Positions 36,275 to 44,045 of a stretch of DNA of 64,000 bases are shown piece by piece. Made by a program: the position numbers and the translations under genes. Each line of letters begins with the position of its first letter. Positions within the stretch are counted from its first letter, which is position 1. Source of the stretch: Nostoc sp. (GTDB lineage: Bacteria > Cyanobacteriota > Cyanobacteriia > Cyanobacteriales > Nostocaceae); the NCBI GenBank assembly GCA_036918135.1, contig JBALDB010000018.1, positions 1-64,000 on the forward strand, given 5' to 3'. The notes beneath the pieces were generated by a model that was not told the origin of the DNA, did no database searches, and saw only the letters and a program-made list of their open reading frames with translations.

Positions 36275-36323
36275 TGTAGTATCTCCTTGACAATATGTAT
36301 TTTATATATTACAAATGTAGTAT
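36275..36323 (+). promoter_or_regulatory. promoter with two TGTAGTAT operator boxes
   Basis: TGTAGTAT at 36275-36282 and 36316-36323 flanking TTGACA (36287-36292) and TACAAA 17 bp downstream. Confidence 0.65.
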
Positions 36324-36365
36324 GAGAACAAAAGCTTTTCTAAAAGGCTAAGGCAAAACATCTCA

Positions 36366-36385
36366 GAACCTAGAAAACCGAATAG
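36366..36385 (+). promoter_or_regulatory. rrn-type boxA antitermination-like element
   Basis: GAACCTAGAAAACCGAATAG resembles the cyanobacterial rRNA ITS boxA (GAACCTTGAAAA) and following motif; small hairpin upstream. Confidence 0.6.
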
Positions 36386-36401
36386 CAAGTTACGACTTTT
36401 T

Positions 36402-36482
36402 GGGGTCGCGATTGGTGTTCGACTGCTCCGAAACCAACAAACGGACGGTAGCAGGATTCGGGTTCAATTCCCGACGACTCCA
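36402..36482 (+). ncRNA. mini-tmRNA (tRNA-like domain only, no tag reading frame)
   Basis: GGGGTCG/CGACTCC-A acceptor with G3.U70; tmRNA-type D region TGGTGTTCGAC; T arm TCGGG-TTCAATT-CCCGA; short helix 2. Confidence 0.8.
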
Positions 36483-36499
36483 CTGACTTCTACTTGTTT

Positions 36500-36706
36500 G
36501 GGTCTGTAACTCTAATGGTAGAGCGCCCAGATTCACTTGTGCTCTGACAGAAAAAGCTTACATACTTGCTCAAAGGTAGAGCGATCGTCTCTAAAACGAT
36601 AAGTGCAGGTTCAATTCCTGCGGTGTAACCACAGCTTTTTCAACTCGCACGAAGTGTGAGTGCAACTCTCACAGGGAAGGTATCGGTTCAATTCCGATCA
36701 GATCCA
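36500..36706 (+). ncRNA. handle RNA 1: Ala-identity tRNA shell whose anticodon arm holds a handle carrying a second tRNA-like body (CUA anticodon)
   Basis: Outer GGGTCTG/CAGATCC-A with D and T arms; handle 36539-36650; inner cloverleaf 36558-36631. Confidence 0.8.
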
Positions 36707-36747
36707 CTAAATAATTTGTAATTCGTAATTAAAAACAGGTGATTGTG

Positions 36748-36948
36748 ATGGTTCATATTCGATTTGAAGGACGTTCTGTTGATGTTGTAGAAACACAACT
36801 GGGAATTACAGCAAGTATGAATGATGTGGCGGTGAAGCAACAGGTTGCACAGCACTTAGATATAAATAACGATCGCCTTTCTGCTTACATAGTAGATCGG
36901 CGTCCCAGTGGGGATTTGATTGTCCGTCCGGAAGCTGTCTATGGTTAA
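36748..36948 (+). CDS. small ubiquitin-like (beta-grasp, ThiS/MoaD-like) protein, putative
   Basis: 66 aa, N-terminal beta strand VHIRFEG, C-terminal [10 protein letters not shown] ending in Gly; an E1/ThiF gene lies in the same locus. Confidence 0.6.
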
Positions 36949-36961
36949 AATATTTAGTTAA

Positions 36962-37141
36962 CCATGCCCTAACAGAAGAAGCATACATACACATTCATAA
37001 CGATCCTAAGGTAGTAAAATTCGAGCGATCAAACTAGCGAAGTATGATTTATAAATTTTTTGCAGATTTAGCATACGTGCCCACTGCCAATAGTTGGTAA
37101 GAGCGATCGTAAGCTGTAAAAAGCTTCTTAAACTTGTACGG
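36962..37141 (+). ncRNA. handle RNA 2: circularly permuted 23S rRNA domain IV (H67-H71) mimic
   Basis: Handle motifs at both ends; ATAACGATCCTAAGGTAGTAAAATTC (36997-37022) resembles 23S 1916-1941; 37078-37112 resembles truncated H68 plus the H69 5' strand. Confidence 0.75.
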
Positions 37142-37156
37142 ATTAATTGAAGAATT

Positions 37157-37300
37157 AATTCCGCGCCCTGACTTGTAAAGCATACAAACATATATCCGGT
37201 AACGGAATACAGGTTCGATTCCTGTCGCTCCCTTTGATGGGAGCGTAGCCAAATTGGTAAAGGCAACTGTGAAAACTGCTTTGCTAACTTGTGCGGAATT
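37157..37300 (+). ncRNA. handle RNA 3: YrlA-like RNA with a circularly permuted class II tRNA domain
   Basis: Order: variable arm, T arm, acceptor stem CGCTCCC-tttgat-GGGAGCG closed by a loop, D arm; enclosed by the handle. Confidence 0.85.
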
Positions 37301-37361
37301 TCAATTATTTAAAATAGTAGTGTTTAGAGCAAGCCTTAGTGATTTTTCAAAACTAAAACTT

Positions 37362-41345: not shown

Positions 41346-41515
41346 CGTGTGGCAGCATTCAAAGCCCAGATTGCCGCAGACACCGCAGATTTCGACGCAG
41401 ATACTGTTGCACGTTTGGAAAAAGTGACCAAGGAACAGGTGAAACGGCATGGTGCGATCGCTCGTCCAACTGCTTTACTGATAGACAAGTCTGGTTCAAT
41501 GGAAAATGCGATCGC
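41346..41515 (+). pseudogene. 170-bp duplicated internal fragment of the vWA gene
   Basis: Near-identical to 38998-39167; ends at a HIP1 site. Confidence 0.9.
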
Positions 41516-41707
41516 TTTTCCATTCATTGTGAAAACAACCGTCTCGTCATGAAATCATTCTGCGTATGCAGATAAAGGTTTTGATGCTCTGAGTAATTTA
41601 GCTTTTTTGTCTTTGTTGAAATAAGGCTGTAAATTAAAGGGTTTAAGATCCGCTTTGTAGGCATAACTAGCAGCCAAAATATTTACCGGAAAGTAACAAG
41701 TGTTAAT

Positions 41708-41725
41708 TGTAGTATAATGTAGTAT
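41708..41725 (+). promoter_or_regulatory. tandem TGTAGTAT boxes overlapping a TATAAT -10 element
   Basis: TGTAGTATaaTGTAGTAT; TATAAT at 41713-41718, just upstream of handle RNA 6. Confidence 0.7.
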
Positions 41726-41735
41726 TAGAATCTCA

Positions 41736-41938
41736 TGCGTGCCCCAACTCGTGGAGCCTACATATTAGTACGAGAGGAAGGTAACACTGCCGAATGCAGT
41801 GGGCGTTAGTGAACGGGGAGTGCGAAGAACCTGGAAAGTGGGCTTAGAAGTAGCCATCTTTGAAAGAGTGTGTAACAACTCACCAGCGGAGTCCCTCTAG
41901 TAACTGAGAAAACGCAATGCTCCACCAACTTGCACGCA
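41736..41938 (+). ncRNA. handle RNA 6: sarcin-ricin loop plus GTPase-associated centre (H42-H44) mimic
   Basis: AGTACGAGAGGA at 41767-41778; 41830-41887 colinear with 23S 1051-1108; handle TGCGTGC/GCACGCA. Confidence 0.85.
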
Positions 41939-41976
41939 GAATTATACAGTAATCTTAAATTATTCGTTAGAACCAA

Positions 41977-42010
41977 GATACCCGACTTCTTTTGAAAAGT
42001 TGGGTATCTA
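41977..42010. terminator. hairpin between RNA 6 and the convergent gene
   Basis: AGATACCCGACTT...AAGTTGGGTATCT inverted repeat. Confidence 0.6.
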
Positions 42011-42030
42011 AACCCTACTGAGCGATAAAA

Positions 42031-42423
42031 TTAAAGTTTACTTTCAGTCTTTGACTTTAATACCTGTATCGCTTTGAATCCTTCTATAGTCTGACCTAAA
42101 AATATCATGGGAATAATCAAGCCAAACGGTTTACCTGTTTGAATCGTATTGTAAATGCCAGTTAACGCATTTAGCGACATCAATCCTACTGCAATACCTA
42201 GTGCAATTTTTGATTTACGTTGTACAAAAAAACCTAGAACTAGATAGAGTAAACCAAAACCTAAAAACCCAATTCCTAATATTAGATAATCAGGCAATCG
42301 ATTACCAACGATAAAGAATATTATGCTTAGGAAAATACTCAAAATTCCAATTGCGTAAACTGCACGATAAGCAGATGCTAACTTTTTTCTGGACTCTGAC
42401 ATCTGTTGTATTTCGGTAGTCAT
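42031..42423 (-). CDS. small integral membrane protein
   Basis: Four hydrophobic segments. Confidence 0.75.
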   Translation of the reverse strand: MTTEIQQMSESRKKLASAYRAVYAIGILSIFLSIIFFIVGNRLPDYLILGIGFLGFGLLYLVLGFFVQRKSKIALGIAVGLMSLNALTGIYNTIQTGKPFGLIIPMIFLGQTIEGFKAIQVLKSKTESKL

Positions 42424-42551
42424 GCTTTTTCTATTTTTTGGGTTTATTGAGAGTAAATAATGTAGAAGCTATAGAACTTAAAAGATATATTTTTTATATA
42501 CTTAAATTTATAAATTTGCTTATGTAATTTTGCTTAAAAAAACGATAATTT

Positions 42552-43382
42552 ATGACTGACATCCGTAAGCTAATCAACCAAATTGCTAGCGCAGAAGCAC
42601 AGTTGTGTAATACTCAATTTCTTGCGCCTTGTGTAAAAGGTGGACGAGTTCGCACACGAGTAGTAGGGATGGTCTATACCTTCACACCAAAGCCGAATAA
42701 ATTTGAAGGTTGGGGTATTTTTCAGCCGGTGGATGAGAAGATAGCAATGGTTGTGGAAGAGGCAGATTTACCTCAAATTGCCGAATACCTGCAACACTTT
42801 CCCCAAATACGGCTGCGGCTAGCATACCAACTGCGGGGACAAAGTTGGTTAGCATACCCCGTGAATGAAGCAGATATACGTCAACGGTTGCAGGTGGTTA
42901 AACCGATCGCCATTCATCTAGTAACTGAAAGTATTATTTTTGACCAAATCATCGCCCGTTGGAATGGACAGTCCTGCTGGTTTGAGGAAATCGATCATCG
43001 TACCGATCCGGCTATTGTTGAAACTCTGCAATCAGCTGTTAAGCAACTGATTCCCGTTGAAGAATTGCAATTTAAAGGCATAACGCCAGAAATTCGCACA
43101 GTCTATGAATTAGCAACACGGCAAATTGAAGGCTTTGGGCAACCCCAACAGGATGAAAAGCGATTGAGAAAGGCATTGCAGATGGGTGGCGGTGAATTAA
43201 AGCAGTTTCACGATCGCGGTGATTACTGGACAGTGGACTGGACAACTGCTGATGGTGTTCGCCACAGTAGTGCGATCGCCAAAACTGACTTGACTGTAAT
43301 CAGTTCTGGTATTTGCCTAAGTGGATACGATCGCAACTTTGACTTGCAATCGTTAGTTGGTGTAATGGAACAACAAGAGTAG
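42552..43382 (+). CDS. hypothetical protein with C-terminal SGICLSG motif, directly upstream of ThiF
   Basis: 276-aa ORF, 24 bp upstream of the ThiF gene; family not recognised. Confidence 0.85.
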   Translation: MTDIRKLINQIASAEAQLCNTQFLAPCVKGGRVRTRVVGMVYTFTPKPNKFEGWGIFQPVDEKIAMVVEEADLPQIAEYLQHFPQIRLRLAYQLRGQSWLAYPVNEADIRQRLQVVKPIAIHLVTESIIFDQIIARWNGQSCWFEEIDHRTDPAIVETLQSAVKQLIPVEELQFKGITPEIRTVYELATRQIEGFGQPQQDEKRLRKALQMGGGELKQFHDRGDYWTVDWTTADGVRHSSAIAKTDLTVISSGICLSGYDRNFDLQSLVGVMEQQE

Positions 43383-43406
43383 TAAGTGTATTAATTACGA
43401 ATTATT

Positions 43407-44045
43407 ATGAGTATCTTTTTTCACGAACAGCTTTACCGCAGCAATGCTGTGATGGCAAAGTTGAAAAACTATCCTGTAACAATTTGTGGGGCGGGGGCGT
43501 TAGGGGCTAATATTGCTGAGAATATGGCTCGGTCTGGTTTTGATAAACTGACAGTAATCGATTGCGATCGCATTGAGGAGCGTAATCTTTCCACCCAGCC
43601 TTACTACCGTTCCGATGTTGGAGCATTCAAAGCAAAAATATTGGCAAACAATTTATACCGAGCAATTGGTACTAAAGTTGATGCTAAAACCAAAGAATTG
43701 ACATCAGCAAATGTCAATCAACTACTCCAAGATAGTCAATTAATTATTGATGCTTTTGACAATAGCGTAGCACGTCAATTAGTAAAAGATTATGCCACTC
43801 AATTTAGCATTCCTTGTCTTCATGCTGGGCTAGCAGTTGATTATGCAGAGGTAATTTGGAATGATGTTTATCGCGTTCCTTCTGAGGTTAATGATGATGT
43901 TTGTGATTATCCTTTGGCACGAAACTTAGTAATATTAACCGTTGCTGTAGTATCGGAAGCGATTGTTTCATTTATTGCCACAACAGAACGGCGTAACTTC
44001 ACCATCACTTTGAAGGATTTGACTGTTCAACCTTTGTTTTTGTAG
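43407..44045 (+). CDS. ThiF/MoeB/E1-like adenylyltransferase
   Basis: GAGALG, D.DRIEERNLSTQ, KA, IIDAFDN..AR; lacks CxxC zinc pairs. Confidence 0.92.
   Translation: MSIFFHEQLYRSNAVMAKLKNYPVTICGAGALGANIAENMARSGFDKLTVIDCDRIEERNLSTQPYYRSDVGAFKAKILANNLYRAIGTKVDAKTKELTSANVNQLLQDSQLIIDAFDNSVARQLVKDYATQFSIPCLHAGLAVDYAEVIWNDVYRVPSEVNDDVCDYPLARNLVILTVAVVSEAIVSFIATTERRNFTITLKDLTVQPLFL

Follow-up and report, generated by a model that had tools for sequence, protein, structure and literature searches.

The stretch of DNA analyzed here, which we call the window, comprises positions 1 to 64,000 of contig JBALDB010000018.1 of Nostoc sp. (assembly GCA_036918135.1; genome 7.66 Mb), read on the + strand. Its sequence is cyanobacterial in character and has its closest relatives in Nostoc. 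Between positions 36275 and 44045 lies a cluster of small RNA genes in which a shared stem element, which we term the handle, is joined to one of several different modules, or cargos. Interspersed with these RNAs are genes for a divergent Ro60-like protein with a von Willebrand factor A (vWA) domain, a candidate ubiquitin-like protein (Ubl) of 66 residues, a protein of 276 residues that we call P276, and an E1-like enzyme of the ThiF family. Taken together, the locus is almost certainly a real and conserved RNA–protein system of the Ro60-like kind.

On the + strand, a promoter region is followed by a reduced transfer-messenger RNA (mini-tmRNA), RNA-1, the Ubl open reading frame (ORF), RNA-2, RNA-3, RNA-4, a paralogue of ribosomal protein L7/L12, RNA-5 and the vWA gene (Table 1). 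Beyond these come an acyltransferase gene on the − strand, a partial copy of the vWA gene, two further TGTAGTAT boxes, RNA-6, a gene for a small membrane protein on the − strand, and finally P276 and ThiF. An earlier note on this DNA had described six RNAs with the same handle and different cargos plus a mini-tmRNA, all on the + strand, interleaved with a vWA gene, an rplL paralogue, a 66-residue protein ending in glycine, an unassigned protein and ThiF, and preceded by shared operators. A repeat search, pattern searches and Rfam confirm the RNAs, gene and family matches confirm the genes, and the operator sequence TGTAGTAT is indeed found at 36275, 36316, 41708 and 41718. Of the boxA-like leader that the note also lists, no clear instance was seen, although no search aimed at it was made.

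Table 1. Features of the RNA cluster and adjoining sequence, with positions in the window
Feature	Position	Strand	Description
RNA-cluster promoter region	36275..36323	+	two TGTAGTAT boxes, 36275–36282 and 36316–36323, matching the TrcR operator
mini-tmRNA	36402..36485	+	RF00023, 43.2 bits; tRNA-like domain of tmRNA, no handle
RNA-1, two-headed	36499..36710	+	handle and inner cloverleaf nested in an outer tRNA-like scaffold
Ubl, 66-residue ubiquitin-like candidate	36748..36948	+	C terminus RPEAVYG; a GTG start at 36739 gives 69 residues
RNA-2	36964..37140	+	handle and copy of 23S rRNA helices H69–H71 (36997–37022)
RNA-3	37160..37297	+	handle and YrlA-like permuted tRNA (T arm, closed acceptor hairpin, D arm)
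RNA-4	37365..37488	+	handle and tRNA-like cloverleaf, loop AUGCGAA
L7/L12 paralogue	37650..38030	+	both domains kept; charged linker instead of hinge
RNA-5	38106..38177	+	handle and 6-bp hairpin with 7-nt loop CUGCAUA
Divergent Ro60-like protein, 477 residues	38239..39672	+	helical-repeat TROVE-like ring, then vWA domain with a metal ion-dependent adhesion site (MIDAS)
Ro-like gene fragment, duplicated remnant	41337..41515	+	179 nt, 93% identical to 38989–39167
Tandem TGTAGTAT boxes	41708..41725	+	starts at 41708 and 41718; overlap the likely −10 box of RNA-6
RNA-6	41733..41940	+	handle, sarcin–ricin loop (41766–41778) and copy of 23S rRNA H42–H44, the GTPase-associated center (41816–41886)
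P276, 276 residues	42552..43382	+	no family match; co-inherited with the system
ThiF-family E1-like adenylating enzyme, 212 residues	43407..44045	+	PF00899, 1.1e-28
Acyl_transf_3 acyltransferase gene	39808–40914	−	between the Ro-like gene and RNA-6; unrelated to the system

Handle-bearing RNAs beside a Ro60-like gene

The handle is built of an outer helix, an asymmetric internal loop with CCYRAC conserved on its 5′ side and ACUUG on its 3′ side, an inner helix of 6–9 bp, and the string UACAUAC leading into the cargo. The outer helix is exemplified by the pairing of UCACUUCGUGC with GCACGAGGUGA. A repeat-family search of the window placed 5′ handles at 36539, 36964, 37163, 37369 and 38109, and a search with 5′ and 3′ patterns located a sixth at 41739. 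A stricter script that also demands pairing recovers five of the six window RNAs, the one missed (36964) having an A·C mismatch in its outer helix. Genome-wide, a relaxed pattern combined with pairing gives 96 matches on both strands, five of which fall within 5.4 kb on one strand at the locus.

To place these RNAs in context, we surveyed about 180 loci (80 from Nostocales, 20 from cyanobacteria of other families and 80 metagenomic), in which handles were sought by regular expressions. The pairing-requiring script finds 410 handle RNAs of 30 cargo classes, with all 101 of 101 loci represented. For 54 members with a tRNA-type cargo, RNAalifold predicts 27 base pairs, 16 of them with compensatory changes, and both helices of the handle are included; columns 10/128 hold UA in 38 members and CG in 15, and columns 22/118 hold AU in 43 and GC in 8. 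The arms of the cloverleaf covary in this alignment as well. Entropy per column is 0.03 bits in the core UACAUAC and 0.03–0.22 bits in the handle core, and rises to 1.12 bits in the anticodon loop. Variation is greatest in the anticodon arm, whose loop takes the form of 33 distinct strings in the 54 sequences, some of them shortened.

The Ro-like gene is distributed patchily, occurring in 47 of 401 cyanobacterial genomes sampled. A strict 27-nt handle pattern is present in 35 of the 401, with a single match for the reversed-pattern control, and it occurs in 35 of the 47 genomes that carry the gene versus none of the 354 that lack it. Several of the 12 gene-positive genomes without the pattern hold fragments of the gene only (G107, G160, G168, G206, G260 and G314), and three others of the 12 have handles with variant letters (G044, G190 and G194). 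In the 80 metagenomic loci, a looser handle signature appears 95 times on the strand of the gene and not once on the other, with 4 occurrences in reversed sequence.

The 477-residue vWA protein is, by profile and by predicted fold, a divergent Ro60. Searched against the PDB, a 30-sequence profile matches human Ro60 (2.3e-15), Xenopus Ro60 (3.4e-12), the Ro60 of a Thermus phage (6.3e-12) and Deinococcus Rsr (2.1e-6); a single-sequence phmmer search of the same database returns only the Thermus phage protein, with an E-value of 4e-4 over residues 25–391. The AlphaFold2 model has a predicted local distance difference test score (pLDDT) of 87.5, and its 11 top Foldseek matches are all Ro60/TROVE proteins, aligned over the whole length (459–525 columns) with E-values from 1e-10 to 2e-8 and template modeling (TM) scores of 0.55–0.65. 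The MIDAS residues Asp300, Ser302, Ser304, Thr362 and Asp386 are invariant in the 30 sequences, seven of which match the vWA_Ro60 family (PF25045). Relatives number 3071 in a collection clustered at 90%, all unnamed or labeled only as vWA domain-containing, and 1011 representatives remain at 50% clustering. Two distant loci, L160 (9939–10721) and L205 (7483–8244), encode an additional, free-standing vWA protein of about 255 residues between the Ro-like gene and P276.

Protein partners and their co-inheritance

The order Ubl, RNAs, Ro-like gene, P276, ThiF recurs in the 80 Nostocales, 20 distant cyanobacterial and 80 metagenomic loci, and in a 595-kb phage. Within the Nostocales loci, searches by blastn and tblastn detect RNA-1 in 77, RNA-2 in 52, RNA-3 in 71, RNA-4 in 77, RNA-5 in 79, RNA-6 in 65 and the mini-tmRNA in 56; the corresponding counts are 75 for Ubl, 71 for P276 and 68 for ThiF, and the gene order never varies. 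The loci from other families, in which protein identity is 67–89%, have handle RNAs upstream of the gene in 20 of 20 cases and Ubl in 18 of 20; P276 and ThiF are present in 7 of 20 within the flank examined. The metagenomic loci were collected by a scan with a 10-sequence alignment of Ro-like proteins and are 46–95% identical to the window protein; many are short contigs, and among the 80 we find Ubl in 54, P276 in 38 and ThiF in 31. Across cyanobacterial families, the proteins are 70–97% identical. The genes for Ubl, P276 and ThiF are strictly co-inherited with the Ro-like gene and its handle RNAs, and where long flanks are available the neighbors are ordinary chromosomal genes of varied kinds. 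The earlier note had taken the vWA protein to be Ro60-like and had looked to covariation of the handle, its linkage to the vWA gene, and joint occurrence with Ubl, ThiF and the P276 family as ways to check the system; each of these is borne out by the comparisons above.

The phage, which is uncultured, encodes a Ubl that is 32% identical and ends in FG, a Ro-like protein (47%), P276 (34%) and ThiF (49%), and in addition a Prok-JAB peptidase. It is the only carrier among 50,697 GenBank phage records, and a scan of a separate collection of viral contigs found no relative of the Ro-like protein. In the RNA array of the phage, the handle is of a related type, GUCCCCAAC ... GACUUGGAC, with UACAAAC after it. 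Read by eye, the phage RNAs occur in a linear form and in a permuted form, the latter with the handle as a GAAA-capped hairpin inside a tRNA-like RNA, and one cargo resembles H69–71.

All 18 of the diverse orthologues compared share the last seven residues of Ubl, RPEAVYG, including the terminal Gly66. Pfam finds no family for the protein, and an atlas search returns only unnamed clusters, one of them with phage members. The best scores of ThiF are to thiamine and molybdopterin adenylyltransferases, and it also matches the E1 domains of defense-type E1–E2 fusions (PADLOC, 2e-18). The predicted complex of Ubl and ThiF scores 0.79, against 0.00 for the best control; of 157 solved complexes, 116 attain this mark, as do 2 of 215 mismatched pairs. 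Across three runs, the contacts coincide to at least 98% and the partner pLDDT is at least 92, and in the model the tail residues 60–66 of Ubl contact residues 28–33 of ThiF, in the GxGxxG loop. The score may reflect likeness to the solved ThiS–ThiF and MoaD–MoeB complexes, and as a prediction the model supports an E1–Ubl pair. In one locus, the ThiF homologue lies on the opposite strand and is split into two overlapping frames, so that it is possibly broken (L112 12012–12714).

P276 has 1188 homologues, none of them named. Its residues Cys27, Cys255, His122 and His238 are invariant. Pfam, NCBIfam and PADLOC assign it to no family, and no PP-loop or rhodanese domain is recognized in it. Searched against the PDB, its profile yields nothing beyond a spurious RecA stretch (E-value 0.02), and the atlas search yields no usable match. 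The L7/L12 paralogue scores 101.6 bits against TIGR00855 (cut-off 84.4) and matches PF00542 and PF16320. It is not the housekeeping copy; the canonical one lies on another contig (C27) and is 48–50% identical (48% by BLASTP). The paralogue is encoded at 28 of the 80 loci from Nostocales and at 3 of the 80 from metagenomes.

Other genes in the neighborhood are less constant. The acyltransferase gene stands at the same place in just 2 of 80 related loci, and together with the fragment of the vWA gene it looks like a recent insertion with partial duplication. A HicA/HicB toxin–antitoxin pair at 44128–44589, directly 3′ of ThiF, has counterparts at this site in no more than 3 of the 80 related loci and is probably unrelated to the system. 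Most Nostoc loci have about 1 kb between RNA-3 and RNA-4 that is absent from the window, with two ORFs of 166 and 95 residues that belong to no Pfam family (L003 6432–7159); RNA-seq contigs of a relative carry 831 extra letters at this gap.

Cargos and the TrcR operator

Cargos were assigned with Rfam and ARAGORN and by comparison with 23S rRNA from a relative (G156), as the assembly of the window itself holds no 23S rRNA. Among the 410 handle RNAs, 145 are tRNA-like, 75 YrlA-like and 65 short hairpins; a further 49 carry the sarcin–ricin loop with H42–44, 40 carry H69–71, and many rare classes have no assignment.

The inner cloverleaf of RNA-1 (36559–36628, loop CUCUAAA) and the cloverleaf of RNA-4 (37389–37462) score 49.8 and 51.1 bits against the Rfam tRNA family (RF00005), for which the cut-off is 29; the RNA-4 fold has a z-score of −4.11. 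These tRNA-like modules have neither a free CCA acceptor end nor a conserved anticodon, and their acceptor strands run into the handle. In RNA-1, the outer scaffold comprises an acceptor, D and T arms and a 3′ CCACU, with the anticodon arm replaced by the handle that carries the inner cloverleaf. From 29 orthologues, RNAalifold predicts this nested fold, with the outer acceptor helix formed by 36499–36506 and 36699–36706. Compensatory change is seen in only two pairs and the outer part is highly conserved, so that the case for the outer fold comes from conservation and folding energy, not covariation. RNA-3 holds its T arm, closed acceptor and D arm at 37208–37264 and has a fold z-score of −4.72; its cargo class is represented in 75 loci.

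Two RNAs carry copies of 23S rRNA. RNA-2 matches 23 of 26 bases of the H69–H71 strand, and the same cargo class is found in 40 loci; in the window its outer helix is weak and its fold z-score is −0.58. In RNA-6, the stretch 41831–41886 corresponds to positions 1093–1148 of the Rfam model RF02541, that is H43/44, at 51 bits (cut-off 50), and comparison with the 23S rRNA of the relative shows that the copy is continuous and extends into H42. Its sarcin–ricin loop agrees in 13 of 13 bases. Across 38 orthologues of RNA-6, mean column identity is 92% and AGUACGAGAGGA is invariant. A complete genome (G029) has a copy of H43/44 scoring 51.8 bits at C1 5951111–5951166, about 57 kb from its Ro-like gene, so genes of the RNA-6 type do not always stand beside that gene.

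RNA-5 ends about 60 nt upstream of the start codon of the Ro-like gene and is possibly a cis-acting copy within the leader of the Ro-like mRNA. Just 3′ of it, we noted by eye that CCUCCUC (38206–38212) is complementary to the Shine–Dalgarno sequence GAGGAGG of the Ro-like gene (38227–38233); a hairpin of the two may sequester the ribosome-binding site and so couple handle binding to translation. The mini-tmRNA has an E-value of 9e-15 and a score below the RF00023 cut-off of 47. In the alignment to that model, 22 nt replace 314 model positions, and the mRNA-like part and the pseudoknots of tmRNA are absent; a canonical tmRNA is encoded elsewhere in the genome (C56, 128.6 bits). In some relatives, the T loop of the mini-tmRNA or of a tRNA-like module contains GC-rich insertions of about 20–35 nt (L049 7375–7519, and a relative’s contig at window position 36463).

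The TGTAGTAT boxes at both promoters are identical to the published operator of TrcR, which overlaps the −10 box in the promoter for the trn tRNA array and is protected in footprints (PMC10272220). Genes repressed by TrcR are reported to be induced by antibiotics that target translation (PMC10272220). Only three places in the 7.66-Mb genome have two of these boxes no more than 60 nt apart, and two of the three are before the RNA cluster and before RNA-6. A box lies at most 80 nt upstream in 42 of 49 RNA-6 orthologues, and at most 500 nt upstream of the first RNA in 58 of 95 loci. From these operators, membership of the locus in the TrcR regulon is a well-founded inference, and induction under stress is plausible because both promoters carry the footprinted sequence.

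The third pair of boxes (contig C2 of the window’s genome G000, 186265–186307; L136 2766–2808) is inverted and flanks TTGACA. The stretch that follows is short, ends in a terminator-like hairpin, and holds neither an ORF of at least 50 residues nor an Rfam match; judging from its sequence, it may be another small transcript under TrcR control. In one locus (L113), about 27 tRNA genes scoring above the Rfam cut-off stand in an array (2158–5555) behind a TGTAGTAT pair at 2069/2080, and the array runs directly into the Ubl/RNA/Ro-like cluster; tRNA arrays also stand directly upstream of the cluster in L140, L170, L179, L174 and L197. This arrangement suggests that the tRNA L-array and the handle-RNA system form one unit in some genomes.

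Interpretation and relation to known systems

We propose that the locus encodes a stress-induced, Ro-like particle whose modules titrate or capture their ligands and whose ubiquitin-like arm modifies a component, and we give this composite reading a probability of about 0.5. Impaired translation would lift repression by TrcR and the RNAs would be made; the handle would bind the Ro-like ring, as the stems of Y RNAs bind Ro60. The modules would then act as free copies of sites for translation factors, for L10 and L11 together with the L12 paralogue, for antibiotics and for RNA-cutting toxins, and the particle would titrate or capture whatever attacks or occupies the copied sites. ThiF would adenylate the C-terminal glycine of the 66-residue protein, which would modify a component of the particle or a captured partner, with P276 as a likely helper. 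By way of RNA-5 in its mRNA leader, the Ro-like protein may regulate its own production.

Freely varying anticodon arms, the sarcin–ricin loop, the thiopeptide/L11 site, H69–71 and the tRNA-like domain of tmRNA are targets of ribotoxins and several antibiotics, and a cargo set made up of them fits the proposed reading. That a huge phage also carries the system suggests a role in conflict. More speculatively, the locus could represent a widespread guard of translation in cyanobacteria, other bacteria and huge phages, in which a Ro60-like ring displays replicas of the sites of ribotoxins, anticodon nucleases, thiopeptides and GTPases, the Ubl, ThiF and P276 proteins mark or neutralize the catch, TrcR acts as the switch, and phages have borrowed the whole as a counter-defense. 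We regard this wider version as tentative, with the odds against it; within it, the sarcin–ricin loop, H42–44 and the system’s own L12 stalk protein might together form a miniature GTPase center.

Several observations weigh against the proposed particle. Pfam TROVE gives no match at an E-value of 0.01 or below for the window protein or any of the 30 members, which may explain why the family has escaped surveys based on TROVE annotation. The 5′ strand of the handle reads GYGCCCYRAC (in the phage, GUCCCCAAC) and so fails to match either GGUCCGA or GNCGAAN0-1G, the Ro-binding motifs in print; by eye the likeness is no more than loose (GUCC...A). Co-inheritance does not distinguish among the four proteins as binders of the handle. 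The handle finder requires pairing and the loci are akin, so the counts overstate independence and show linkage, not independent events. The folds of RNA-5 and RNA-6 are no better than those of shuffled sequence (z-scores −0.42 and −1.34), and RNA-3 scores 24.1 bits against the YrlA family RF02553, where the cut-off is 69, aligning only to model positions 30–81. RNA-2 has UUCGA where H70 of 23S rRNA has UUCCU; with part of H70 absent, some known toxin sites would go uncopied. The L12 paralogue, which 52 of 80 Nostocales and 77 of 80 metagenomic loci lack, is thus an accessory part. Neither an E2 nor a JAB partner is recognized by Pfam or PADLOC among the proteins of the window, and the AlphaFold2 model of P276, made from 16 sequences, is unusable at a pLDDT of 39.9. 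Finally, three RNA-seq runs from one study hold 5–8% of the sampled words, and their contigs, from a relative about 90% identical, cover the mini-tmRNA with RNA-1, the stretch from Ubl to RNA-4, and the L12 paralogue with RNA-5; as assembled contigs with no silent control stretch, they cannot show transcription, ends or strand.

Rather than the Ro-like protein, P276, another co-inherited protein or a host factor could bind it, or it could be a mere processing signal while the Ro-like protein acts on other RNAs; the linkage is equally strong for all four proteins, and the handle motif is unlike those known to bind Ro. Against such a reader stand the hallmark Y RNA layout, in which the terminal stem contains a conserved internal loop, the module varies and a Ro60 homologue is encoded next door, the YrlA-like order of one module, and the position of RNA-5 in the Ro-like leader in 79 of 80 loci, and on balance we find it unlikely. 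A somewhat better case can be made for a scaffold of RNA repair or quality control, like the one proposed for Rsr/YrlA with RtcB, which would not be a decoy and whose modules would recruit repair, modification or decay enzymes or would mark damaged RNAs for the Ro-like ring. In the literature Ro60 is reported to act on misfolded or damaged RNAs, a Y RNA to tether Ro60 to PNPase, and jumbo phages to carry ROT/TROVE proteins among RNA-repair genes, and the TrcR regulon of Anabaena is reported to include rtcB and a slipin/Band-7 gene as well (PMC10272220). Among 82 ORFs selected from 141 listed at 12 distant loci, however, no RNA ligase, kinase, phosphatase or nuclease stands beside the module, and none was seen in the window; the conserved partners are Ubl, P276 and ThiF instead of repair enzymes, and this account also appears rather unlikely to us. 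We see a possible, if still doubtful, alternative for the protein arm in a sulfur carrier akin to ThiS–ThiF, MoaD–MoeB or TtuB–TtuC, which would thiolate the RNAs or cellular tRNAs with P276 as the sulfur transferase. The best matches of ThiF, the failure to detect an E2, the invariant Cys27 and Cys255 of P276, and a system built around tRNA-like RNAs all agree with it, and TtuB and Urm1 do act in tRNA thiolation. It accords less well with a Ubl that ends in YG (FG in the phage) and not the usual GG, with the likeness of ThiF to defense-type E1 domains, with the lack of a recognized PP-loop or rhodanese domain in P276, or with the JAB peptidase of the phage locus, although JAB proteins occur with sulfur carriers too.

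The remaining explanations deny the RNAs a role as displayed copies. They could be spare parts, precursors that release working tRNAs or a tmRNA-like rescuer under stress in the manner of the trn L-array; tRNA L-arrays do lie directly upstream in several loci (L113, with about 27 tRNAs behind its TGTAGTAT pair, L140, L170 and L179), and YrlA of M. smegmatis is reported to be cleavable by RNase P and able to receive CCA. The modules of the handle RNAs lack CCA, however, their acceptor ends continue into the handle, and the profusion of anticodon-loop strings does not speak for working tRNAs, while the rRNA-like and hairpin cargos cannot serve as tRNAs; we therefore judge a store of spare parts quite improbable. 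That the cluster is the decayed, functionless debris of a mobile tRNA/rRNA island is hardly credible. Its patchy distribution and the insertion with gene-fragment duplication in the window would fit such an origin, but the high identity of the proteins across families, the compensatory changes, the absolute strand bias and the same gene set in other bacteria and a phage do not.

The function of the modules of bacterial Y RNAs is an open question, and at this locus the modules are legible, being near base-for-base copies of known sites. If the RNAs do bind the Ro60-like ring, the system would give direct experimental access to Ro/Y RNA function and tie Ro biology to ubiquitin-like modification. 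It would also add a new branch to the cyanobacterial regulon for translational stress and provide natural mimics of ribosomal sites that are common to bacteria and huge phages.

The pairing of a ThiF enzyme with a small glycine-ended protein, whose tail is modeled in the active site, resembles ThiS–ThiF, MoaD–MoeB and TtuB–TtuC as well as the defense-type E1–E2–JAB operons, and the phage version of the locus likewise has a JAB peptidase. The Nostoc pair differs from these systems in that its Ubl ends in a single glycine after tyrosine (phenylalanine in the phage), in that it has no recognizable E2, rhodanese or PP-loop partner, and in that it is fixed to a Ro-like ribonucleoprotein. Mimicry of rRNA by an RNA near an L12 gene has a precedent in the L10(L12)4 leader of ribosomal protein operons, which copies 23S H42–44, the site bound by L10 and L11. 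Unlike that leader, RNA-6 has its own promoter, a handle and a sarcin–ricin loop, and it begins 3.7 kb downstream of the stop codon of the L12 paralogue; given its distance, its promoter and its presence where the paralogue is absent, we conclude that it is not an L12 leader.

With the TrcR regulon and trn L-array of Anabaena sp. PCC 7120, the locus shares TGTAGTAT over the −10 region and the connection to translational stress (PMC10272220, PMC8421152), and in some relatives the L-array lies directly upstream of the Ro-like system. By term searches of those papers, tRNA genes, rtcB, rsgA and rimK are described, whereas a Ro-like protein, handle RNAs and a Ubl/ThiF pair are not (PMC10272220, PMC8421152). 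The Ro60 of Thermus phage phiLo (PDB 9L5Y/9KOP) is the closest solved relative in sequence and the best Foldseek match, at about 19% identity, and it establishes that phages carry Ro60 homologues (PMC12135203); the opening of its published abstract mentions neither RNA partners with rRNA-like modules nor a Ubl/E1 arm (PMC12135203).

Whether the family had already been described was a point left by the earlier note. Rfam 15 has no family for the handle and files the RNAs only as tRNA or rRNA fragments, and in the literature covered by our full-text searches, judged by titles, abstract openings and selected passages, so that an earlier mention is possible, we found neither Y-like RNAs with rRNA cargo nor a module of Ro, Ubl and E1. 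The nearest known relatives are the bacterial Rsr proteins with their YrlA, YrlB and Yrn1 RNAs, in which a vWA protein of the Ro60 fold likewise sits beside several small RNAs, each with a paired-end stem, an internal loop and a variable module (PMC4201824). The module of RNA-3 follows the order of YrlA known with Rsr of Salmonella, Mycobacterium smegmatis and Deinococcus radiodurans (PMC4201824). The Nostoc system departs from this pattern in a protein too divergent for Pfam TROVE, in a handle that differs from GNCGAAN0-1G, in up to six or more RNAs per locus, and in its constant partners, which are Ubl, P276 and ThiF instead of RtcB/RtcA or PNPase. Full cloverleaves, a tmRNA-like domain and 23S rRNA copies as cargos are absent from the published account of Rsr and Y RNAs, as far as the portion available extends, and the same survey, of 2014, reported few YrlA RNAs in cyanobacteria (PMC4201824). 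Because its core logic, a Ro60 homologue with adjacent stem-and-module RNAs of which one is YrlA-like, is already known, we place the Nostoc system with the Ro60/Y RNA kind.

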